Virus record (IMG/VR): IMGVR_UViG_3300017766_005733
Location: 67,626-131,625 of that record
Source of the DNA: a virus
DNA length: 64,000 nt
Strand: one strand, 5' to 3'
In this document: positions 6,161 to 20,980 of the stretch, piece after piece
Numbering within the stretch: the first letter of the stretch is position 1
How the letters are laid out: each line of letters opens with the position of its first letter
Position numbers and translations under genes: made by a program
The notes under the pieces: model-generated
What the model saw: only the letters and a program-made list of their open reading frames with translations
Databases searched by the model: none
What the model was told of the DNA's origin: nothing

Positions 6161-8155
6161 ATGCGCCTCAACATCAAAAGCCTTGAACTCAGCCGTTTCC
6201 GCAGCTATGTGGAGCCGGCTGGGGTTCTTTTTCCAGAAACGGGACTTGTACTGGTGCGCGGCAACGGATCCGGCGCCGGCAAGTCCAGCCTCTTCATGGC
6301 CATCTACGATGCCATCGGCATCTGCCCCGTCCCCGCGACGCAGCTGAAGTCGTGGCACGGAGATGGTTGCCGCAGAGTGTCGCTCCAGCTTGAGGCGGAT
6401 GGAAAGGACATTTCCATTCGCCGCGGCGAAGCGCAGTCACTGACGATCGATGGCGCTGAAAAGGCCATGGAGTCGCTGCCGTCGGCACTCGGCGTCAAGG
6501 ACCTTGAATGGCTGTTGCCGTTGACTTATCGGCCACAGAATGGCGGCTCCTTCTTTCTCTCCCTCGGCGACGCCGAGAAGAAGAGTTTCCTCTCCAGTGT
6601 CCTTGGCCTTGATGCCTTGGAGAAGGCGTTTGAAGAAAGCCAAGAGAAAATGCCGAGGCTGCAGGCGGCCAAGGAGGCGGCAGCGGCCCGACTTGCTTCC
6701 ATCGCCGGCGGCCTGCAGGCCAACAAGGAGGCGCTGAAGGGGGCTGGCGGCGTTGCTCTTGACGACCTGACGGCGGCACAGGATGCCGTTCGGATTGCGG
6801 TGGAAGAAGCGAAGGACGCCGTGCAGGCGGCACGGGCCGACGTCACCGCTCGCACGGCGGAAATCTCCCAGCTGCAAAAGCAGTCGCCGCAGCTGACGCC
6901 GGAAGCTGAAGAGCAGGTTGCGGCGTTGCGAGCGCCGCCGCCAGCCGATCCGATGCTTGCTCAGTTTGAGTCACGCCTCAAGGCCGTGGATCAACAGGAG
7001 GCGGCGGCGAAGAAAGAGTGGTCGGAGGCCAACGCCGCGTACCTGAAGGCCACGCAGGCGTGGTCTCTGGCGTCTACGAAGCTGGCGAAGGCAGAGGCCG
7101 ACCTCGCTGCCCTGCGGCGGCAGGAGCAGACGAAGGCGGCCGAGTTGGAGTCCCTGACTTCAGGCGTCTGCCCCACCTGCCATCAGCCTTGGCACGATCA
7201 CGAAGAGCAGTCCGACCGTTCGATGTCTCTTGCGGAACTGCGCAAGCGCATCACCTCGCAGGAGACTGTCGTTGCCGAGATGGCGGTGACGCAAGAAAAA
7301 CCGCAGCCGCCTCCCCAGCCCGATCTGTCCCAGCAGCAGAAGATGCGCGTGGCCCTGAGGCAGCGCTACGACCAGCTGCAGCTGGCTCATCGCCAGAAGG
7401 CACTGGAGAACTCGGCGGCCGCAGATGCATTGATTGCCGCCGCCCGCGTCGACCTCGATCGTCGCCTGAGCGCCCTGACGACTGAACGCGCTGAGGCGTC
7501 ACAGAAGCTGACGGAAGCCACCAATCGCTTGCAGGCCGCCGAGCACCACAAGGCGCTCGTGGGTCTCATCGTCCGCGCGCAGCTGGATCTGACTCAGGCG
7601 CAAGAAGTCCTTGACCAAGCCCTCGCCGAGATGAAGGCCGAGGATGACTTCAGGGCCCTCGTCGGCCCCAAGGGCTTCCTCGGCGCCATCTTCGATGAGG
7701 TGCTGGAGGAGATCAGCACCGAGACCAATCGCCTGCTGGCACTCATGCCAAACGTCACACATGTCAGCCTGCAGCTTTCGTCGACGAAGACCTCGGCGAC
7801 ATCCAAGAAGCAGCAGAAGGTCATCACTCCCGTCTTCCGCAGCCATGGCCATGAGATCGCCGGCGCTTGGATGCGGGTCTTCAGTGGCGGTCAGGTGACG
7901 GCCATTCAGCTGGCGCTGGATCTGGCTGTGGCTCAGGTGCTGGGGCGCCGTACGGGCCTTGAGGCTGGCTGGCTGATCCTTGACGAGCCCTTCGTGGGGC
8001 TTCCGGCTGCGGAGACGGAGCAGGTCATGGAGGTTCTGCGGCTGCTCGCAGAAAAGCGCTTGCTTCTTGTCGTGGACCATGGTACTGAAGCGCAGCAGAT
8101 GTTTTCGCGGACGATCGAAGTCGTAAACGAAAACGGTCGTAGCAGACTACAATAG
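6161..8155 (+). CDS. SbcC/Rad50/gp46-like SMC-family ATPase
   Basis: GNGSGAGKSS Walker A, coiled coil with CPTC zinc hook, FSGGQ signature, LILDEP Walker B, VDH. Confidence 0.92.
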   Translation: MRLNIKSLELSRFRSYVEPAGVLFPETGLVLVRGNGSGAGKSSLFMAIYDAIGICPVPATQLKSWHGDGCRRVSLQLEADGKDISIRRGEAQSLTIDGAEKAMESLPSALGVKDLEWLLPLTYRPQNGGSFFLSLGDAEKKSFLSSVLGLDALEKAFEESQEKMPRLQAAKEAAAARLASIAGGLQANKEALKGAGGVALDDLTAAQDAVRIAVEEAKDAVQAARADVTARTAEISQLQKQSPQLTPEAEEQVAALRAPPPADPMLAQFESRLKAVDQQEAAAKKEWSEANAAYLKATQAWSLASTKLAKAEADLAALRRQEQTKAAELESLTSGVCPTCHQPWHDHEEQSDRSMSLAELRKRITSQETVVAEMAVTQEKPQPPPQPDLSQQQKMRVALRQRYDQLQLAHRQKALENSAAADALIAAARVDLDRRLSALTTERAEASQKLTEATNRLQAAEHHKALVGLIVRAQLDLTQAQEVLDQALAEMKAEDDFRALVGPKGFLGAIFDEVLEEISTETNRLLALMPNVTHVSLQLSSTKTSATSKKQQKVITPVFRSHGHEIAGAWMRVFSGGQVTAIQLALDLAVAQVLGRRTGLEAGWLILDEPFVGLPAAETEQVMEVLRLLAEKRLLLVVDHGTEAQQMFSRTIEVVNENGRSRLQ

Positions 8156-8165
8156 GAGCACACAA

Positions 8166-8447
8166 ATGCCGAAGAAGATGAAGGCCGAAAAAGACCCCTT
8201 TGCCAACCTTGACAGCGACTTCAAGGACGCAATCCTGCAGGGCGAAGAGACGGCGGTGCGCGCCGCGGCCTCCAAGGTCGCCCTCGATCAGGAAGAACTC
8301 ATGTCGGCCAAGGAAGGCGACGAGGACCTGAAGCAGGCGATGGCGGCGGCGTCGGTGGCCAGCGCCGTCTACCGCGAGGGCACGAAGATGAACAAGCTGC
8401 GCATCAAGTTCATCCGCAGCGTCCTCAAGAGCCGCGGTCTGGAGTGA
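8166..8447 (+). CDS. Hypothetical helical protein
   Basis: AGGAG SD, ORF with typical codon bias. Confidence 0.8.
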   Translation: MPKKMKAEKDPFANLDSDFKDAILQGEETAVRAAASKVALDQEELMSAKEGDEDLKQAMAAASVASAVYREGTKMNKLRIKFIRSVLKSRGLE

Positions 8448-8524
8448 ATGCATGTTTCATGCCGTGCGTTTTTAGGATTTGAAAAACGCATGGAATGTTT
8501 CTTGCGACGCAAGATGAGTTGATC

Positions 8525-8556
8525 CAACCCCGGTCGAAAGGCCGGGGTTGTGCTTT
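8525..8556 (+). terminator. Hairpin, probable terminator
   Basis: CAACCCCGGTC-GAAA-GGCCGGGGTTG followed by TGCTTT. Confidence 0.55.
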
Positions 8557-8616
8557 ATGCGACGTGAATCTTGGTTTTCCACTTCCGTTGACGCATAGCG
8601 GGGTGGCGGAGCGAGT

Positions 8617-9213
8617 ATGCGCGTCCTCGGCCTCGACTTGTCCAGCAATCCCGGTTTCGCGGTTGTCGAGGCTGAGCCCGAGGGGCAGCTGAGGTTGATT
8701 GCCTACAAGGGCTATCACGTCGAGGCTAAGTCGTCGTTCCCATTTGCTCATGTTGACATCGCTGAATCCGTAACCAAAATCGTTGTGGATTGGGTGGAGA
8801 ATCATTCTCCAGACCGAATCGTCATTGAGCAAACGAATCTGGGCAAGGCAAGGTACTCCCAGAAGCAGCTTGAGTTCATTCATTTTGCTGTGATCAAAGA
8901 ACTGCGATCACGCCACCTTGATTTCGTCTATGTTGACTCCTCTGAATGGCGCCGCGCCCTTGCGCAGCGGCTGTCGAAAGAGGATCGAAAGAACAACGCC
9001 AAGGTGGCGAAGGCAAAGAAGACCGAGGACCCCTTGGCGACCAAGAAGGCGCTTGGGGTATCGGGCAAAATCACACACAAGCATCTCTCTGTGGCTTGGG
9101 TGAACGCCAACTTTCAGCTGCAGCTGAAGTTGAAGGACAACGACGTCGCTGACGCCGTGTGTCTTTGCGCCGCGGCGATGCAGCCCGGCATCCGATTCTG
9201 CGACGGAACCTGA
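8617..9213 (+). CDS. RuvC-like Holliday junction resolvase
   Basis: VLGLDLS, IVIEQ and DNDVADAV acidic catalytic motifs of the RNase H fold. Confidence 0.85.
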   Translation: MRVLGLDLSSNPGFAVVEAEPEGQLRLIAYKGYHVEAKSSFPFAHVDIAESVTKIVVDWVENHSPDRIVIEQTNLGKARYSQKQLEFIHFAVIKELRSRHLDFVYVDSSEWRRALAQRLSKEDRKNNAKVAKAKKTEDPLATKKALGVSGKITHKHLSVAWVNANFQLQLKLKDNDVADAVCLCAAAMQPGIRFCDGT

Positions 9214-9298
9214 GGAAAACTCTGGCCAAAGACGAAGTGGGATGTTAGAGTCCCGCTTCGTTGTCGGCATATTTTGGCGATGACACAAGGAGGACAGA

Positions 9299-11599
9299 AT
9301 GCTGGTGAGACCACTTGATAAGGGCATGGGCGAGGCTGTGGCGCGGCGTACCGTTTATCGGCCGTCCGATGAGGGTTCGTGGGCCAACGTGGCGAAGCGC
9401 GTGGCGCTGGGGAACACTCTGCTGGGTCATCCGACGACCATGCAGGTTGAATGCGAGGCGATGACCGAGGCCATTGCCTCCGCGTCGTTGCTGATGTCGG
9501 GTCGCCACCTGCAGCATGGTGACGATCAGCAGCCGCGTCGCTCGATCGAGGTCTTCACCAACTGCTCGTCGGCGGCGGCTTCGTTCGCCAAGTTCTACCT
9601 GCTGCTGAATGGCAGCGGCGTCGGTCGCGGCTACGACGACCACATGATGGTTGTGGACTGGCAGAAGGGACCGAACATTCGCCTCGGCCTCTCCGCCGAA
9701 CACACCGATCACCCGCACTCTCCCGAAGCCATCCGCGAGTTCGCCCGCAGCTGGGGAATGTCAGTCGACGACGTTCCGGCTCTCCTCGATTCCTTCACCC
9801 TCAATCACCACGCTGTTGCGGCGGCGATCGCCGAAGGCAAGTTTGAGGACGACAATCACGTCTACATGCAGGTCGACGACAGCCGAGAGGGCTGGGCCCA
9901 TGCCTTGGAGCGCTGGGAGACGATGGCATTCCTGCAGGATCGCCGGACGCTGGTGATTGACTGGTCGCTGGTGCGCGCCAAGGGCACACCGATTGGCGGC
10001 ATGCAGGATCGTCCGGCCTCGGGGCCGCTGTCGCCGATGCGCGCTTTCTGGCGCGTGACGTGGAACGTCGTCATGGCCTCGGAGATGCCGCTGTGGCGTC
10101 AGGCCATGGTCGTCGACCACTACATGAGCGAAGAGGTGCAGGTTGGCGGTGCCCGTCGTGCCGCGCGCATGTCGACCAAGGACTGGCGCGATCCCGGCAT
10201 CATCGACTTCATCGAGATCAAGTCGAAGGGCGGACTGTGGACGAGCAACAACTCGATCACCGTCGACGCCGAGTTCTGGCGCCTTGTGGCTGAAGGCGAT
10301 GTGCGGGCCAAGGAAATCTTTGACGCCGCCACCGCCTGCTCCTTCATCAACGGCGAGCCGGGCTTCATCAACGGCGACCTGCTGGAGAAGCATGGCCAGC
10401 GTCAGGTCTACGACGATGGCAGCGACTTCCGCAGCGACCGCTTTCAGGCGCGGTGCGCTCAGCCGCTGCTGAAGGCACTGGGGGAGCGTGCGACGACCTG
10501 CAGGTTTGAGTACATCACCAACCCCTGCGGTGAAATCGTCCTCCACACCCTCGGCGCCTACTGTGTCATCGCCGACGTCGTCCCGCTCTTTGCCTTCCCC
10601 GGCACCCTTGACGAGGCGATTGCCATCCGTCAGGCCCTCGTCTGGGGTACGGCCAACGAGGAGATGCACGCGAAGGTGCGGCAGTGGGACGACAACTTCC
10701 ACAAGGCCGCCAAGATCGCGACTCGTGCCCTGATGCGCGTCAACAAGATGCCGGCCCTCTACCAGAAGGAAGTCGAGCGTACCCAGCGCATTGGCGTTGG
10801 TCTCACCGGCATCCACGAGTATGCGTGGCTGCGGTTCGGCCTGACCTTCGACGACATGCTGTCTGGCAGCCCCGAAGCCAACCAGTTCTGGGCCATGCTT
10901 CACCATGTCTCGGAGGCCATCAAGCAGGAGTCGATCGACTACGCGCAGGAACTCGGGGTCTCGCCGCCGCACACGGTGACGACCGTCAAGCCCGCGGGGA
11001 CGACCAGCAAGCTGTTTGGTCTCACTGAAGGCGCTCACCTGCCTTCGATGGCCAGCTACCTGCGTTGGGTCCAGTTCCAAGGTCGCAAGACGGAGGCTGG
11101 TGAGTGGGCGAAGGCCAGCGATCCGCAGCTGCCGGTCTTTGAGTCCAAGGGCTACCCGATGCGTCAGCTGACGCAGTACGCTGGTACCACGATCGTCGGC
11201 TTCCCGACGGTGCCGCTCGTCAGCCGCCTCGGCATGCCGAAGGTGACGACGGCTCCTGAGGCCACGCCCGACCAGCAGTACCAGTACCTGCGTCTGCTGG
11301 AGGAGAACTGGATTGGCAAGCACCGCGGCAATCAGGTGTCCTACACCCTGAAAATCTTCACCGACCGAGTGTCGTTGGACGAGTACCGCGGCATTGTCTT
11401 GCGCAACCAGTCGACCATCCGCTGCTGCAGCGTCATGCCGACGCTTCCCGAGTCGCAGATGGGCTACGAGTACCTGCCCGAGCAGGCCGTGACCCTCGAC
11501 GAGTTGGCGGAGATCATGGGCAAGATCAAGGACGACGACCTGAAGCAAGAGATCGACATCAACACCCTTCTCTGCTCAACCGGCGCCTGCCCCATGTGA
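9299..11599 (+). CDS. nrdJ: Class II (adenosylcobalamin-dependent) ribonucleotide reductase
   Basis: TNCS, GGARRAA, TNPCGEI, TTVKPAGTTSKL, C-terminal CSTGACPM; no NrdB partner in the window. Confidence 0.88.
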   Translation: MLVRPLDKGMGEAVARRTVYRPSDEGSWANVAKRVALGNTLLGHPTTMQVECEAMTEAIASASLLMSGRHLQHGDDQQPRRSIEVFTNCSSAAASFAKFYLLLNGSGVGRGYDDHMMVVDWQKGPNIRLGLSAEHTDHPHSPEAIREFARSWGMSVDDVPALLDSFTLNHHAVAAAIAEGKFEDDNHVYMQVDDSREGWAHALERWETMAFLQDRRTLVIDWSLVRAKGTPIGGMQDRPASGPLSPMRAFWRVTWNVVMASEMPLWRQAMVVDHYMSEEVQVGGARRAARMSTKDWRDPGIIDFIEIKSKGGLWTSNNSITVDAEFWRLVAEGDVRAKEIFDAATACSFINGEPGFINGDLLEKHGQRQVYDDGSDFRSDRFQARCAQPLLKALGERATTCRFEYITNPCGEIVLHTLGAYCVIADVVPLFAFPGTLDEAIAIRQALVWGTANEEMHAKVRQWDDNFHKAAKIATRALMRVNKMPALYQKEVERTQRIGVGLTGIHEYAWLRFGLTFDDMLSGSPEANQFWAMLHHVSEAIKQESIDYAQELGVSPPHTVTTVKPAGTTSKLFGLTEGAHLPSMASYLRWVQFQGRKTEAGEWAKASDPQLPVFESKGYPMRQLTQYAGTTIVGFPTVPLVSRLGMPKVTTAPEATPDQQYQYLRLLEENWIGKHRGNQVSYTLKIFTDRVSLDEYRGIVLRNQSTIRCCSVMPTLPESQMGYEYLPEQAVTLDELAEIMGKIKDDDLKQEIDINTLLCSTGACPM

Positions 11600-15474: not shown

Positions 15475-17145
15475 ATGCTACAGCGCAACCCTCCCTCTTT
15501 TCATTGCCATCCCCAGAGCCTTGACTCGGGTTCAACCCCCGAGGCCATCATCAAGCGAGAGATGGAGTTGGGCACGGGGACCATTACCGTCACCGACCAC
15601 GGCTCCCTGTCCTGCTGCCGCAAGGTCTATGACCTCGCTCGCGGCAAGGGGCTGACGCCGATCCTCGGCATCGAGGGTTACTTCCGCGACGACAACTGCC
15701 CGATTCTGCGCGCCAAGGGCGTCGACCCCGCGAAGCACCTCAAATACTACCACATCACCATACACGCCCTCGACCAAGAGGCTTACCACAAGATCGTTTC
15801 CAAGACGTCGTTGGCTCGCACTGAGCGCCATGGCAGCGAGGTCAAGCCGCTGTTCACTTGGGCGGACTTGGAGGAGATCGGTGCCTGCAACGTCACCGTC
15901 GGCAGCGGCTGCCTCGTGGGTATGGTGCAGCGCCACCTGTTGGCGCATGGCGACTTGGCTACCGCCGAGGCCTACTATGCGCGCCTGCGATCGATCGTGC
16001 GCCCCGGCAACTTCTACGCCGAAGTCTTCCCGCACTCCTGTACCCACAACTGGGTGCAGGGCGTCTTCGTGACCTTTGCCGACGGCACCGAGGTCCGTTA
16101 CTACGACGAGAAGAACCTGCGCCTTGGCAGTGGCCTGCAGGTGAAGGCGGCGGAACTCGCCAAGGCCTTTGCCCACAAGGGCTGGAAGGGCGACACGCTG
16201 GTGGCGGTCATGGATCGCCGGGTGTGGCGCGACCTTGAGCCCAAGGCCATCGTCAAGGTGAAGCGCGTCGAGGCCTTCATCGAGAACGAGTGCCTGCCAT
16301 GGACGACCAACCCCAACGTCCAGCAGGCGTGCAACGAGATCATCCTTGGCTTCGCCGACAAGTACGGTGACCCCGTGGTCATCAGCGACGACAGCCACTA
16401 CGCGACGGCCGACGACAAGATCGTGCAGGACATCCGCCTGCAGCAGCAGGGCAACTGGCGCTTCTACGGCACCTACGCCCGCCAGTCGGCGGCCGATTCA
16501 TGGGCCTACTTCAAGGCCAACAACACCACGGAGGCTCAGTTTGAGGGCTGGGTGGAGAACAACGTCGCGTGGGGTCAGCGCTTCAAGGACTTCAAGCTGG
16601 TGGAGCCGCCGTCGCTGCCCACGAAGTTCTACCCCTCCGACACCCTCAACCACACCATCGACCTCGTTCGGCAGCAGGGGCGGATGCAGTGGAAGGACCA
16701 GAAGTACGTTGATCGGCTGCGGGCGGAGATCAACCTGCTGCACTACAACAAGACCATCGATCTGCTGCCCTACTTCTTTGTGGGGGCCGACGTTTGCAAC
16801 GCCTACTCGCAACAAGGATTTCTGACTGGGCCGGGCCGCGGATCGGCCGCCGGTCTCCTGTTGACGTACCTGCTGGGCATCACCCACGTCGACCCGCTGA
16901 AGTATGACCTGTCGATGGATCGCTTCCTGACCGTCGATCGCATCAAGTCGGGAAAGTTGCCTGACATTGACTTTGATTTTCCGTCTCGGGATATTCTCGT
17001 AGAAGAGCACGACGTGGATATGATAGAAATCGTCATGGAAGACGGATCCAAGAAGATCATCTCGCCCTCTCAGAAGATCAAAACCAGTCAAGGAATGATG
17101 ACAGCACAGGAAGCCTTCGATCGACAGGCTGAGGTGATCGAATGA
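15475..17145 (+). CDS. dnaE: DNA polymerase III alpha subunit, N-terminal fragment (PHP domain and first part of palm)
   Basis: HCH, TDHG, PILGIEGY, SDDSHY, GPGRGSAAG, LGITHVDP, LPDIDFDF; ends in a HINT-like tail. Confidence 0.93.
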   Translation: MLQRNPPSFHCHPQSLDSGSTPEAIIKREMELGTGTITVTDHGSLSCCRKVYDLARGKGLTPILGIEGYFRDDNCPILRAKGVDPAKHLKYYHITIHALDQEAYHKIVSKTSLARTERHGSEVKPLFTWADLEEIGACNVTVGSGCLVGMVQRHLLAHGDLATAEAYYARLRSIVRPGNFYAEVFPHSCTHNWVQGVFVTFADGTEVRYYDEKNLRLGSGLQVKAAELAKAFAHKGWKGDTLVAVMDRRVWRDLEPKAIVKVKRVEAFIENECLPWTTNPNVQQACNEIILGFADKYGDPVVISDDSHYATADDKIVQDIRLQQQGNWRFYGTYARQSAADSWAYFKANNTTEAQFEGWVENNVAWGQRFKDFKLVEPPSLPTKFYPSDTLNHTIDLVRQQGRMQWKDQKYVDRLRAEINLLHYNKTIDLLPYFFVGADVCNAYSQQGFLTGPGRGSAAGLLLTYLLGITHVDPLKYDLSMDRFLTVDRIKSGKLPDIDFDFPSRDILVEEHDVDMIEIVMEDGSKKIISPSQKIKTSQGMMTAQEAFDRQAEVIE

Positions 17146-17567
17146 TTTGTCAAAGATGCAACAAGGACGAGCGATACAAAGATGGCAAATGCAAGCCATG
17201 TGCTCGCGCAAGAGCCAGAGAAGACTACCATCAAAATGCCGAAAAACGGAAAAGACAGGCACAGGAATGGAAAGAGAATAACCGAGAAAGAGCCAGAGCC
17301 TCGGGTCGCAGGGGAGGACGAACTGATTGGCAGCCGGGTGAGCACGAAAGAGCAGAGGCCGCCCTAAAGACGGCAAACCGGTGCGAGGTCTGTGATAGCG
17401 TCGACCCTCGCCATAAACGTGGATGGAACGCCGACCACGATCACGCCACCGGGCTTTTCCGTGGCATCGTCTGCCATCCATGCAACATTGCCATCTCTCA
17501 TGTAGAGAAGTTTGACCTAGACCGCGGGCAGCAGGTCTGGTACTACCTTGCAAGGAAGAAACGATGA
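17142..17567 (+). mobile_element. Free-standing endonuclease VII-type (His-Me finger) homing endonuclease splitting dnaE
   Basis: CEVC...NADHDHATGLFRGIVCHPCN; ATGA overlaps at both ends; more A-rich than the flanking DNA. Confidence 0.88.
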
Positions 17568-20500
17568 AAATCACCTCAATCAACGCCGTCACGGTGAGAG
17601 CGGAACCTTGGCTCAAGCAGCGCTTCGGCGCCGACCACTACGCGCAGATCAGCGCCGACACGACCCTGAAGCTGCGGTCGTCGGTGAAGGACGTTGCGCG
17701 CGCCACCCACGGCTCAGTGCCGCCTGACGTCGAGGAACTGACCAAGCAGTTCCAGAATCCTCCTCAGGGCATCAGCGACAGCGACTTCGTCTTTGGCTAC
17801 ACGGCCAACGACGAACACGTCCCCGGCAGCATCGAGACCGACGCCGCCCTCAAGACCTACATCTCCCGATACCCCAAGGAATGGGAGACGGTGCAGCGGC
17901 TGCTGGGTATCGCGCGGTCCAAGACCCGTCACGCCTGCGGCTTCATCATCGCCAATCGCCCTGTCCATGAGTTCATCCCGTTGATGGACATCGGCGGCGT
18001 CACGGCCACGCAGTACACCTCTTCTGCCGTCGAGGCCGCCGGCGGGCTGAAGATGGACTTCCTTGTCGTCAACAGCCTTGGCGACATCAAGGATGCCCTG
18101 AACCTGATTCAGGAGGGGACGTTGCCCGGAGGCCGGGCCAGTGGCGACGAGGGTCTGCGGTATCCGGCGACGCTGGTGATCAACGGCCGCCTTGTGCCGC
18201 GCCATCGTCTTGTGCCCGACGGCAACGGCGGCTTCTACGACATTTGGGATCTGCCCGAGGATCAGGCGGTGTTTCGCGAGATCAGCGAGGGCAAGACCGA
18301 GACCGTCTTCCAGTTCAACACCCCCGGCGCCATCCAGTGGCTGCGGCACTTCAACCACTGGAAGGACGAGATGGCTGGACACAAGGCCATTGACTCCATT
18401 GAAGCCATGTCGGCCTTCACGGCCCTTGACCGCCCCGGACCCTTGGATGCCTACGTTGAGGGGCCCGATGGCCGCCAGCACAACATGCTCGTGGAGTACG
18501 CCCGCCGTGCCCGCGGCGAAGAAGCCTGTGGCAGCATCAATGCCCTGTCAGTCCTCTTTCCCGAGACCTATGGCGTCCTGACCTACCAAGAGCAGCTGCA
18601 GCGCGCGTATCGCGAGTTGACGGGCTGCAGCGGCTCAGAGGCCGAGGAGTTCCGCACCAACGTCGCGAAGAAGAAGATGGACAAGGTCCTGAAGGCCTAC
18701 CCGGCGTTCATTGAGCGTGCTTCCGCCAAGGTTGGCGGCGAGCAAGTCGCCAAGACCATCTGGGAAACCTTCGTTACATGGGGACAATACGGCTTCAACA
18801 AAACTATGGACCAAAGCACAATCTTGTCTACGGTTGACGGTGACCAGAAGCGCATCGTCGATTTCAAGGGCGGAGAGCATGTTTGGTGTGTTGATGATCA
18901 TGGGCAAAAAACCGCGACCGAAGTCGTGGCGTTGCATGATCATGGCGAACTGATGGGTTGGGAACTTGAGTTTGACGATGGCTACAAGGTAGTTGCGTCA
19001 TCTCATCATAAGTTCTTGACAGAACTTGGCCAGACACCCCTTCATGAAATCATTGATCGGGATTTGGAGGTGCTTGGTGGCGTATCAATGGAAGAATCGA
19101 GTGGTGGGCATTCCAATGGCGTGCGGCCAGAGGGTGCCGAAACGCCAGAGGGCGATGCACAAAAGGGACTGCGCGACTTGCGCGGCCGTGAAAGCGGAAA
19201 ACATTCGGCAGAGGATGATTGCGCACAACACTCGGCCGGAACAGAAGGCAGCGGCCTCGGAGGCCGCTCAGAGAACTTCGTCTCGGCGAGACATCCAGCT
19301 GCAGCGAGTGGCGCGAATGCATGCTTGGCAGCGAGAGCATCCAGAACAGATCGAGGCGATCTGGGAATCCGCCAGAAGAGCAGGCAAGAAATCGAAGGCG
19401 GAGGCATGGCTTCGATCAGAGGCGATCTTGAGTTGGCCGGATGCACAGATCCGCTGCGGGCTCAAGAAGAAGCAGGTGGACTTCGTGTCCCCAGACCACA
19501 AAATCTGGGTGGAAGTGGACGGATTCTTCCACTTTCACGAGGCATCGAAAACTCGGAAACAGTTGACGAAGATTCAGGAGAGGTACGCGATGCTGCGCGA
19601 CGAAGCGCTTCGTCGCGGCGATGTGACATTGATCCGGCTTTCCGGGCAATGCTTCCGTTCTTCCGACGGGAGGATGCATCGCGAATGGCTAGAGTGGCTT
19701 ACAGCGACGCTCCGCTCTCCTGTTCCCGGAGTCTGGTGCGCCGGCGCATTGTACGAGTCCGTGCAGTGGGCATCCGCCGGATGTACGATCTTGAAGTCGC
19801 CCACCCGAAACACAACTTTATGCTGTCCAACGGAGTCGTAACCAGCAATAGTCACTCGGTTTGCTACAGCCACATCGCCTACGCCTGCGCCTACCTCAAG
19901 CACCACTTCCCGCTGGAGTGGTGGTGCGCCGTCCTTGGCAATGCGTCAAAGAACGAGGTCGTCGACGACTTCTGGCGCCACTGCGGTCATCTCGTCAAGC
20001 TGCCGGACATCAACCGGTCGTCGCGCAAGTTCCGGATTGAAGGCGACCACATCCGCGCGCCCGTGGGCCTGATCGTGGGTGTTGGCGAGACGGCACAGCA
20101 GCAGCTACTGGCCCTCGCCCCCTTCGTTGACGTCCGCGACTTCTGCCAGAAGATCGAGGTCGATTGCGTTGCCCGCAAGACGCCGCTGATCGACAAGGCA
20201 ACGGGGAAACAAAAGACGACAAAGGACGGCCAGCTGCGATGGACGAAGGGCCGCAGCGCGCTGACGCGAGGCGTTGTGCATCTCCTCATTGCCGCCGGCG
20301 TCATGGACAGCCTCTTCCCCGCCGACTCCACGCTGTCGGAGAAGATCGCGGCCTACGAGCAGGCGTCGGCTGAGGCCAAGGGCGAAAAGAAGATCCAGCC
20401 GGTGCCGCCCAAGTACCTCGTCAACAGCCGCGTCCTCAACTTCCAGCTGCGCAAGAAGGTGCTGCCCATCTACAGCGAGGCCCTGTATCCGCTGCTGCTG

Positions 20501-20980
20501 GAGGCCGACGAAGAACAATGGCCGCGGAAGGCGCTGACTCATGCCCGTCAGCCCATCTTCCGCCACATGGCCGACGACATCCCCGTCGTCAGCCATCGCC
20601 GTCTGCAGGCGCTGGAAACCATCACGCCGTGGCCCGCGGACATGAAGATCAAGGTGGCGGTGCCGTGTGTCGTCAAAGGCCGCCGCGTCTTCTCTTACGC
20701 CAAGGGCGAGAAGGAGGCCTGCGAGTTGGACCTTGACTGCGAGGGCGGTGGCGCGGTAAACGTCGTGAAGTGGCCCGACCGGAAGACGGGTAAGATTCCG
20801 GCGTGGTACAGGAGCGACATCGCTGGTGCTATTGGCCTTGCTATCTTTGAAAAATACACCGAGCGCCGGCCCTTTGGCCTCGTCGACCTGATTGTCTTCC
20901 ACCAACCAGCAACAACGGAAACCGAGAATGAGCAAGAAGCCCAACAAGATGCCGCAGAACGAACCCCAGACGCCGCCTGA
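17564..20980 (+). CDS. dnaE: DNA polymerase III alpha subunit, C-terminal fragment, containing an intein
   Basis: FGADHYAQI, RHACGFII, GGLKMDFL, TVFQF, RPGP, TYGVLTYQEQ, YGFNK^SHSVCY, YLKHHFPLEW, LPDINRS. Confidence 0.93.
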   Translation: MKITSINAVTVRAEPWLKQRFGADHYAQISADTTLKLRSSVKDVARATHGSVPPDVEELTKQFQNPPQGISDSDFVFGYTANDEHVPGSIETDAALKTYISRYPKEWETVQRLLGIARSKTRHACGFIIANRPVHEFIPLMDIGGVTATQYTSSAVEAAGGLKMDFLVVNSLGDIKDALNLIQEGTLPGGRASGDEGLRYPATLVINGRLVPRHRLVPDGNGGFYDIWDLPEDQAVFREISEGKTETVFQFNTPGAIQWLRHFNHWKDEMAGHKAIDSIEAMSAFTALDRPGPLDAYVEGPDGRQHNMLVEYARRARGEEACGSINALSVLFPETYGVLTYQEQLQRAYRELTGCSGSEAEEFRTNVAKKKMDKVLKAYPAFIERASAKVGGEQVAKTIWETFVTWGQYGFNKTMDQSTILSTVDGDQKRIVDFKGGEHVWCVDDHGQKTATEVVALHDHGELMGWELEFDDGYKVVASSHHKFLTELGQTPLHEIIDRDLEVLGGVSMEESSGGHSNGVRPEGAETPEGDAQKGLRDLRGRESGKHSAEDDCAQHSAGTEGSGLGGRSENFVSARHPAAASGANACLAARASRTDRGDLGIRQKSRQEIEGGGMASIRGDLELAGCTDPLRAQEEAGGLRVPRPQNLGGSGRILPLSRGIENSETVDEDSGEVRDAARRSASSRRCDIDPAFRAMLPFFRREDASRMARVAYSDAPLSCSRSLVRRRIVRVRAVGIRRMYDLEVAHPKHNFMLSNGVVTSNSHSVCYSHIAYACAYLKHHFPLEWWCAVLGNASKNEVVDDFWRHCGHLVKLPDINRSSRKFRIEGDHIRAPVGLIVGVGETAQQQLLALAPFVDVRDFCQKIEVDCVARKTPLIDKATGKQKTTKDGQLRWTKGRSALTRGVVHLLIAAGVMDSLFPADSTLSEKIAAYEQASAEAKGEKKIQPVPPKYLVNSRVLNFQLRKKVLPIYSEALYPLLLEADEEQWPRKALTHARQPIFRHMADDIPVVSHRRLQALETITPWPADMKIKVAVPCVVKGRRVFSYAKGEKEACELDLDCEGGGAVNVVKWPDRKTGKIPAWYRSDIAGAIGLAIFEKYTERRPFGLVDLIVFHQPATTETENEQEAQQDAAERTPDAA
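18803..19849 (+). mobile_element. Intein (349 aa) at the YGFNK^SHS site, starting with Thr
   Basis: Block A TMDQSTILSTVDG; block B ASSHHKFLT; block F MYDLEVAHPKHNFM; block G NGVVTSN|S. Removing it restores YGFNKSHSVCY. Confidence 0.92.
19077..19841 (+). CDS. Vsr/DUF559-like homing endonuclease nested in the +1 frame inside the intein
   Basis: GGAGG (19066-19070), 6 nt, GTG 19077; SKAE...VDFVSPDHKIWVEVDGFFH...LRRGDVTLIRL; basic helical N-terminal region. Confidence 0.82.
   Translation: MAYQWKNRVVGIPMACGQRVPKRQRAMHKRDCATCAAVKAENIRQRMIAHNTRPEQKAAASEAAQRTSSRRDIQLQRVARMHAWQREHPEQIEAIWESARRAGKKSKAEAWLRSEAILSWPDAQIRCGLKKKQVDFVSPDHKIWVEVDGFFHFHEASKTRKQLTKIQERYAMLRDEALRRGDVTLIRLSGQCFRSSDGRMHREWLEWLTATLRSPVPGVWCAGALYESVQWASAGCTILKSPTRNTTLCCPTES

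Follow-up and report, generated by a model that had tools for sequence, protein, structure and literature searches.

A phage dnaE broken inside a putative half-HINT module, with intein-derived tails as a candidate splice-free clasp between the polymerase halves

How can a DNA polymerase be put together when the two parts of its palm are encoded by separate genes with a nuclease gene lodged between them? This question is raised by dnaE in a 64,000-nucleotide stretch of viral DNA (IMG/VR virus record IMGVR_UViG_3300017766_005733, positions 67,626 to 131,625; hereafter the window), which belongs to a viral record of 131.6 kb with an estimated completeness of 80%. Here dnaE consists of two genes, an Endonuclease VII/HNH-type nuclease gene lies in between, and the three overlapping open reading frames (ORFs) occupy three different frames of the plus strand (Table 1). 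Taken together, the evidence makes it likely, in our judgement, that the two parts of dnaE are real, separate genes with a translation start each, and that pieces of the middle lobe of an intein, one ending the first product (the N-tail) and one opening the second (the C-head), dock the two polymerase halves without splicing, the nuclease being a mobile passenger.

The first product matches the PHP domain of Pfam (E 3.3e-19) and the beginning of the palm (DNA_pol3_alpha, E 1e-22, profile positions 19-111), and its C-terminal end reads ...PDIDFDFPSRDILV followed by EEHDVDMIEIVMEDGSKKIISPSQKIKTSQGMMTAQEAFDRQAEVIE. The second opens with MKITSINAVTVRA, continues with EPWLKQRFGADHYAQI, and matches DNA_pol3_alpha at profile positions 119-259, the finger and HHH_6 families and, weakly, Intein_splicing; the DNA_pol3_alpha model is interrupted at the split, between its positions 112 and 119. 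As a preliminary description of this DNA had claimed, the nuclease gene stands between the two fragments, an ATGA overlap joins it to each of them, and the palm motifs are divided, PDIDFDF falling on the N-fragment and GGLKMDFL on the C-fragment. The hallmarks of DnaE (Pol III alpha) are all present across the two halves, as judged from Pfam and from alignment with the nearest named relative, the unsplit DnaE of Myxococcus phage Mx1: a PHP domain, the PDxD and KMD motifs of the palm, fingers and HhH. The Mx1 protein (1289 amino acids) is 52% identical to the N-fragment, in a match that reaches residue 509, and 49% identical to the C-fragment. Because Mx1 has only a short loop, RDLLIHPETGWL, at the break, the 47 residues that end the first product and the 13 that open the second are extra. 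The insert has a G+C fraction of 0.45-0.51 over 16950-17324 as compared to about 0.60-0.66 in its flanks, and a blastn search with it against phage records returned no match.

The split arrangement is not an assembly artefact, because contigs from the runs of three other studies span it and reveal neither joints nor a form in which it is skipped. One of these (X2) covers 16781-17989 with 2 differences, a second (X4) covers 16600-17556 with none, and a third (X6) covers 17102-17989 with 60 substitutions and no gap. No match to the PolA or PolB family was found in the 131.6-kb record, which is estimated to be 80% complete, and therefore the split dnaE appears to be the phage's replicative polymerase and a gene that is needed.

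What, then, are the extra residues? When a hidden Markov model of 11 N-tails was searched against 177,635 PDB sequences, chains of DnaE inteins made up 14 of the 17 top rows (E 0.0015-0.013), and positions 1-43 of the model aligned to residues 55-98 of the Npu, Ssp and halophilic DnaE split inteins. Similarly, BLASTP aligned the window's N-tail with the window's own intein, which lies further downstream in dnaE, at 13/38 identities and without a gap, and the tail of L006, another split relative, shares 13/40 identities with the intein of P0042, an unsplit one. We then turned to structure through two template-free AlphaFold2 models, one of the insert of L007, in which the single in-frame stop was read as X (mean predicted local distance difference test score, pLDDT, 64), and one of the naturally fused insert of P0056 (pLDDT 81-92 over residues 11-70). 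Both models contain four strands and a short helix, plus a further strand supplied by the C-head. A Foldseek search of the PDB, a comparison with HINT folds that the preliminary description had recommended, listed inteins in 41/46 rows for the first model (E >= 0.07) and in 36/43 for the second. The top match in VIA-align was in both cases the Npu DnaE intein (4kl5_A), with Z 6.5 and a root mean square deviation of 2.8 A over 61 residues for L007 (model 6-67 on chain 52-114), and Z 7.4 and 2.2 A over 59 residues for P0056 (model 11-72 on chain 54-113); the HINT superfamily fills 49/50 rows in each list. The models cover about half of the HINT fold, bounded by intein residues 52/54 and 113/114, and the strand of the C-head is the part that aligns up to Npu residues 113/114. 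Because the N-tail profile matches solved DnaE inteins and the two fold searches agree, sequence and models together support an intein-derived, non-catalytic origin of the tails. They likewise support the view that the module corresponds to the second half of the intein N-domain (IntN) plus the first strand of the C-domain (IntC), that is, to the HINT middle lobe (about Npu residues 54-113), much as the preliminary description had read the N-tail and the C-head. On these models, the gene break coincides with the point where HINT folds are canonically split or receive an endonuclease.

Two minor observations were made along the way. MAFFT twice set the C-heads (KIxxIxxx) onto the first strand of the N-tails (VVEFxAEDG), in alignments A10 and A11, and this may reflect either the pseudo-two-fold symmetry of HINT domains or an artefact of short sequences. 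The sole non-HINT row of the VIA list for L007 (rank 45) is the central domain of phage T4 topoisomerase II (8yo3_C, Z 3.3), probably by chance; this topoisomerase is itself split around a mobile endonuclease according to Crona et al. (2011; PMC3045599).

To ask how stable the arrangement is, we compared relatives. Scans of viral contigs gave 37 classed family rows (L019 and L048 stand outside the classing), of which 15, representing 11 distinct lineages, are split at exactly this dnaE site and bear tails; the other 22 are unsplit and have a short loop. Among the best 150 protein cluster representatives, 13 end in a tail, convincingly so in 12 (P0101 is doubtful), and 8 were flagged by pattern as contiguous: four of these carry the module, P0032 has a different, acidic insert and three are false flags. 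In the same census 29 representatives were "unclear" by pattern, looking insert-free by eye, and 34 did not include the site. A metagenome scan with the tail alignment yielded at least 596 pattern matches and one confirmed locus, L014, whose junction is the same as that of L013. In a quick IQ-TREE of the 37 N-part exteins, accounting for the split state takes no fewer than 5 changes, of which well-supported branches force 3. The presence of the module requires 11 changes in a 114-row tree, which was built with FastTree only, takes its "unsplit" labels of cluster representatives from the pattern and includes representatives beyond P0083 only if they bear the module.

The preliminary description had held that dnaE was split by the homing endonuclease, and here the relatives disagree. 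The gap holds no gene in 7 of the 11 split lineages, where the ORFs abut or overlap: in L007 a TAG is directly followed by a TTG in the same frame, the junctions of L025, L026 and L028 are ATGA, and those of L013, L016 and L029 are longer overlaps. These nuclease-free junctions share no common recoding signal and leave no room for an intron. An Endonuclease VII gene occupies the gap only in the window, its close relative L003, and L006, and unrelated ORFs occupy it in the L035 and L038 lineages, such that the slot between the dnaE halves appears able to take cargo besides nucleases. The nucleases of the window and L006 (Endonuclease_7, PF02945; E 1.6e-11 and 4.8e-08) lie in the same place and are 60% identical (81/136), as compared to about 51% for the N-part exteins and 18/48 for the tails. 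In L003, with an N-fragment 96% identical to that of the window, the nuclease ORF is reduced to 81 amino acids by loss of the Cys-rich N-terminal 60 residues, and the tails are intact. In P0042, whose exteins are about 85-89% identical to those of L006 (349/393, and 482/565 when the unmatched tail is counted in the alignment), the site is empty, with an ordinary unsplit loop, RDLLVDPQDPSKGWLAERFG, and neither tails nor nuclease. Because most split relatives are without the nuclease, the L003 copy is truncated, two lineages have unrelated ORFs and four relatives carry the module fused, the nuclease looks like a dispensable passenger that comes and goes, and the module like the stable feature. 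The intein-remnant reading of the preliminary description is therefore retained as to an intein-derived, non-catalytic and splice-free module, and finds no support as to the nuclease being the cause of the split. This patchy pattern of gain, decay and loss is what a mobile cassette would leave behind, much as inteins and homing endonuclease genes do, and the cassette of tails and nuclease probably spreads by homing. In the lineage of the window there are hints that it was replaced together with its nuclease, because the tail of the window shares the fewest identities with the tails of its extein sisters (L016 7/46, P0007 11/49) and more with those of distant lineages (L006 18/48, L025 18/47, L026 19/47).

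If the module is the stable part, do its tails look like functional protein? The N-tails are acidic in 11/11 lineages (net -4 to -12), and the first 11 residues of the C-heads have a net charge of 0 to +4, positive in 10/11; the values for the window are -4 (last 44 residues of the N-tail) and +1. All split forms share the N-tail pattern hEhxhEDG(S/T)K..h....h.h.T..G..T..EA...G.d, which, like the charge, is kept across 11/11 lineages despite identities of 13-43%, and the C-heads of the 11 lineages share MK(I/F)xxIxxx, each time with an ATG, GTG or TTG start of its own. Between the window and L003 the N-tail has accumulated 4 synonymous and 1 non-synonymous change (omega, the dN/dS ratio, 0.05) and the head 2 and 1, with omega of 0.08-0.09 in the flanking exteins; between L025 and L028 the corresponding values are 14 and 8 for the tail (0.125), 4 and 1 for the head (0.05), and 0.05-0.10 for the exteins. 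By these figures the tails evolve as protein, under purifying selection like that on the polymerase itself.

We propose that, once both chains are made, the acidic tail would pair with the basic head as the halves of split inteins do in their first ("capture") step, forming between the two chains a beta-sheet half-HINT lobe that would dock the polymerase halves; the palm (PDID... plus ...KMD) would thereby be completed with no peptide bond across the break. In this scheme the Endonuclease VII/HNH gene would sit where inteins normally carry their endonuclease, with the gap between the halves as its safe harbour. As for the origin of the arrangement, an ectopic move of an endonuclease together with its immediate intein flanks, which are this lobe, could have delivered the break and its antidote at once. 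The lobe retained here is reportedly also the one that forms first during capture. The docking proposal draws on charge: split inteins begin to assemble when a cationic IntC and an anionic, disordered stretch of IntN capture each other electrostatically (PMC11766414), and the acidic tails and positive heads match this polarity, making it plausible that the tails act as a clasp. We are more doubtful of a wider proposal, offered tentatively, in which the tails and the gap would form a self-contained mobile "gene-fracturing cassette". An endonuclease, moving with the two sets of intein strands on either side of its slot, would bring a non-covalent antidote of its own and so could break an essential gene with no splicing chemistry. 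The cassette would alternate between an empty site, a split one with cargo or without, and a fused form, and the 45 + 12-residue module would be a natural, minimal and autonomous heterodimerisation unit, the isolated "capture" lobe.

Several results weigh against the docking reading and the intein homology beneath it. The intein case is a modest one, built on the agreement of independent lines of sequence and structure and on no single score: E-values of the PDB profile search are 1e-3 to 1e-2, those of Foldseek are at or above 0.03 throughout, and VIA Z-scores stay below 8, which is middling by the tool's own note. A Pfam scan of four tails at E <= 10 matched a HINT or intein family in 0/4, with two chance-level rows for L006, although the Pfam intein models barely detect the genuine intein of the window too. 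A homologue search with tail residues 509-556 gave one candidate, and none was scored. The C-head part of the models draws on 4 of the 24 rows of the final alignment (A12), from which 10 and then 3 C-head rows had been removed after misplacement by MAFFT. Prediction of the complex from the N-tail (A5) and C-head (A8) alignments, run without controls, scored 0.30 and 0.28 where the mark is 0.32, and speaks neither for nor against binding.

The only tested precedent, the fragmented NrdA of phage Aeh1, also counts against a docking role, because Crona et al. (PMC3045599) report that its fragments still bind one another when the tails are missing. It lends weight to the alternative that the tails are a decaying intein leftover which contributes nothing, the halves assembling through the palm fold alone. 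The N-tail of L029/L030, at only 33 residues, likewise indicates that part of the module can be lost. However, a neutral relic would hardly be expected to evolve at extein-like rates (dN/dS 0.05-0.125), to keep its pattern and charge in every lineage, or to persist in the seven lineages from which the nuclease is absent, and we consider this alternative unlikely.

The search for unsplit homologues with the same insert, suggested in the preliminary description, revealed four proteins (P0046, P0056, P0068 and P0083) that carry the module fused in one chain. The existence of such forms fits a view of tail and head as parts of a single domain that can be either broken or continuous at this point. 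At the same time, these relatives retain the domain although they need no clasp, and another role, original or gained, is possible. One might therefore read the half-HINT module as an inserted domain with an independent role, such as contacting a further protein of the replisome, in which case the gene break within it would be incidental; indeed, the pattern of the module's first strand recurs in a PHP-domain insert that is shared with the unsplit Mx1 protein. Yet no result indicates a partner, the fused forms make up one small clade (4 rows, support 94, FastTree) nested among the split ones, as secondary fusion predicts, and L007 is a single TAG codon short of such a fusion. We regard an independent function as quite unlikely, and return to docking as the preferred reading.

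Could the halves instead be ligated? The preliminary description had seen no splicing motifs, and the relatives agree. Block A with its N-terminal Cys/Ser nucleophile is absent, since the tail starts at intein-equivalent residue ~52-55 and only 3-12 residues separate the extein RD(L)L from the first strand of the module. Block B (TxxH) is absent too: Thr occurs in 1/24 and His in 1/24 of the aligned tails, and the window has S..Q. Blocks F and G and the terminal Asn with Cys/Ser/Thr are likewise missing, no Asn plus nucleophile being conserved in the C-heads, which are 11-27 residues long and directly joined to the (P)GW(L/F)..R(F/Y)G of DnaE. The module thus appears to have lost the lobe that bears every splicing residue, and because block A, TxxH and the terminal Asn and nucleophile are absent, protein splicing is not expected. 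That trans-splicing persists through an unconventional, very small split intein, as homology to split inteins and the His kept by P0007 at the block-B position might suggest, is highly improbable: every lineage lacks about 50 residues from the N-terminal and about 25 from the C-terminal end of the intein, and neither junction has a conserved Cys/Ser/Thr.

At E <= 10, a permissive Rfam scan of 16500-20200 matched neither Intron_gpI nor any other intron family (three weak, unrelated rows had E >= 0.46), with the limit that an intron model interrupted by a 426-nucleotide ORF could escape detection. Because of this result, together with the zero non-coding bases of nuclease-free relatives and the selection on the tails as protein, RNA splicing across the split is very unlikely, as the preliminary description had argued from the lack of non-coding room. 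Group I introns with an HNH gene are common in phage polymerase genes and the insert has its lower G+C, but a group I or other intron that carries the nuclease ORF and is removed from the mRNA, the tails being intron read in frame by chance, is extremely improbable when Rfam finds none, the ORFs of nuclease-free relatives abut or overlap, and the tails are present in four fused proteins.

The split dnaE with its half-HINT tails is a new form of two known phenomena, fractured genes and assembly tails. Like the fractured genes described by Dassa et al. (2009; PMC2677866), it involves a phage replication gene (dnaE is among theirs) whose two parts are separated within an intein, with an endonuclease gene occupying the canonical endonuclease/split point and complementary charges on the intein strands that pair or, here, would pair. 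Those genes, however, are described there as keeping six HINT motifs, five catalytic residues and an IntN of 88-105 amino acids, with splicing expected, and as associated with GIY-YIG or Vsr-like nucleases. Here the gene layout is the same, the nuclease is of the Endonuclease VII/HNH type, and in place of a complete split intein with all splicing motifs there are about 45 + 12 residues of the middle lobe and no catalytic residue, so that ligation of the halves is not expected. The closest parallel to the tails is Aeh1 nrdA/mobE, for which Crona et al. (PMC3045599) report an essential phage gene fragmented, with an HNH-family mobile endonuclease in the gap, neither RNA nor protein splicing, and short oppositely charged tails at the break through which function is restored. 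Such unique, oppositely charged tails around a mobile endonuclease are found here as well, with the polarity reversed relative to Aeh1 (tail acidic, head basic). In that account the tails act on dimerisation of the heterodimer and their origin is unknown, the authors offering degenerate intein remnants as a speculation with no evidence for it; for dnaE, the intein origin is backed by sequence and predicted fold. The cyanobacterial split DnaE inteins (Npu, Ssp) are the closest matches in both sequence and structure (4kl5, 2keq, 4qfq, 1zd7 and others), break the fold at the same point, and have an anionic IntN and a cationic IntC (PMC11766414); they differ in occupying another DnaE site and in being full-length and catalytically active. 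HINT domains outside classical inteins, such as those of Hedgehog autoprocessing and bacterial intein-like domains, were matched at VIA Z 3.1-3.6 and are complete and catalytic, whereas the module is half a domain without catalytic residues.

The locus supplies a concrete case for the idea raised as speculation for Aeh1 NrdA, namely that the rescue tails of endonuclease-fractured genes can be degenerate inteins. It also suggests that nature can retain the middle lobe of a split intein as a docking module that does not splice. As such it bears on split-intein assembly, on intein decay and on the survival of broken essential genes. A natural pair of ~45 and ~12 residues that associates without a covalent junction would, if true, be a useful part for protein engineering, and for phage annotation the arrangement explains many DnaE genes that appear "truncated" or "duplicated". 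In the literature searched, which did not extend to supplements (Supplementary Table S1 of Dassa 2009, for example, might list such loci), no account was found of intein remnants that occur naturally, do not splice and act as assembly tails.

Table 1. Coordinates of the split dnaE, its module and nuclease in the window, and gap contents and lineages of split relatives
Feature	Location	Strand	Description
dnaE N-fragment	15475-17145	+	556 aa (amino acids); PHP domain and first part of palm with PDIDFDF, then tail
N-tail	17002-17142	+	47 aa, EEHD...EVIE; putative N-terminal part of half-HINT module, ~ DnaE split intein residues 55-98
Shine-Dalgarno-like GAGGTG	17131-17136	+	5 nt upstream of nuclease ATG, within final N-tail codons; presumed function
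Endonuclease VII/HNH-type homing endonuclease gene, free-standing	17142-17567	+	141 aa; overlaps both dnaE fragments by ATGA
Shine-Dalgarno-like AAGGAAG	17552-17558	+	5 nt upstream of C-fragment ATG; presumed function
dnaE C-fragment	17564-20980	+	1138 aa; remaining palm (GGLKMDFL), fingers, HhH; holds separate intein
C-head	17564-17602	+	13 aa, MKITSINAVTVRA; putative C-terminal part of half-HINT module, ~ first IntC strand, about Npu residues 103-113
L035 gap	6758-7219		154-aa ORF, no Pfam family at E <= 0.01
L038 gap	6747-6980, 7139-7384, 7365-7967		ORFs of 78, 82 and 201 aa, no Pfam family at E <= 0.01
Split lineages (11)			window/L003, L006, L007, L013, L016, L025, L028, L026/27, L029/30, L035, L038/39

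Other inserts were observed in the same polymerase. The separate intein of the window's C-fragment is contiguous (GFNK|SHS, about 18803-19849), begins with Thr and ends in TSN|S; its middle is of low complexity in the dnaE frame, and an ORF in another frame (19026-19841, 271 amino acids) looks Vsr/DUF559-like (Pfam DUF559, E 0.039). The same arrangement is found in L003 (ORF 8399-9403) and L028 (ORF 8151-9296). P0042 has an intein after GFNKS (residues ~921-1029) that is absent from L006, such that this site and the split site are oppositely occupied within ~11-15% divergence. In L029, dnaE is apparently in three pieces (7783-9152), the middle fragment ending in a seemingly real IntN (YGF|CIDGDQ..., ATEDH as TxxH, then a stop) that is followed by a 359-amino-acid ORF, an arrangement resembling a fractured gene of the classical kind within this same polymerase. 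Large extra inserts are also present in the PHP/N-terminal part of P0083 (residues ~330-715) and of L045 (an N-part of 926 amino acids); that of P0083 starts DDCLGVG, ends VHNSHFAS and probably represents a complete intein that includes an endonuclease domain. The PHP-domain insert of the window, GVFVTFADGTEVRYYDEKNLRLGSGLQVKAAELAKAF (16050-16290), which the unsplit Mx1 DnaE also contains, has a strand-turn-strand pattern like that of the tail. Finally, P0032 contains in the same loop as the split, after PDIDQDLPHRDLLV, a contiguous and very acidic insert of ~40 residues that includes EGEDGS and may be what is left of the module after further decay.

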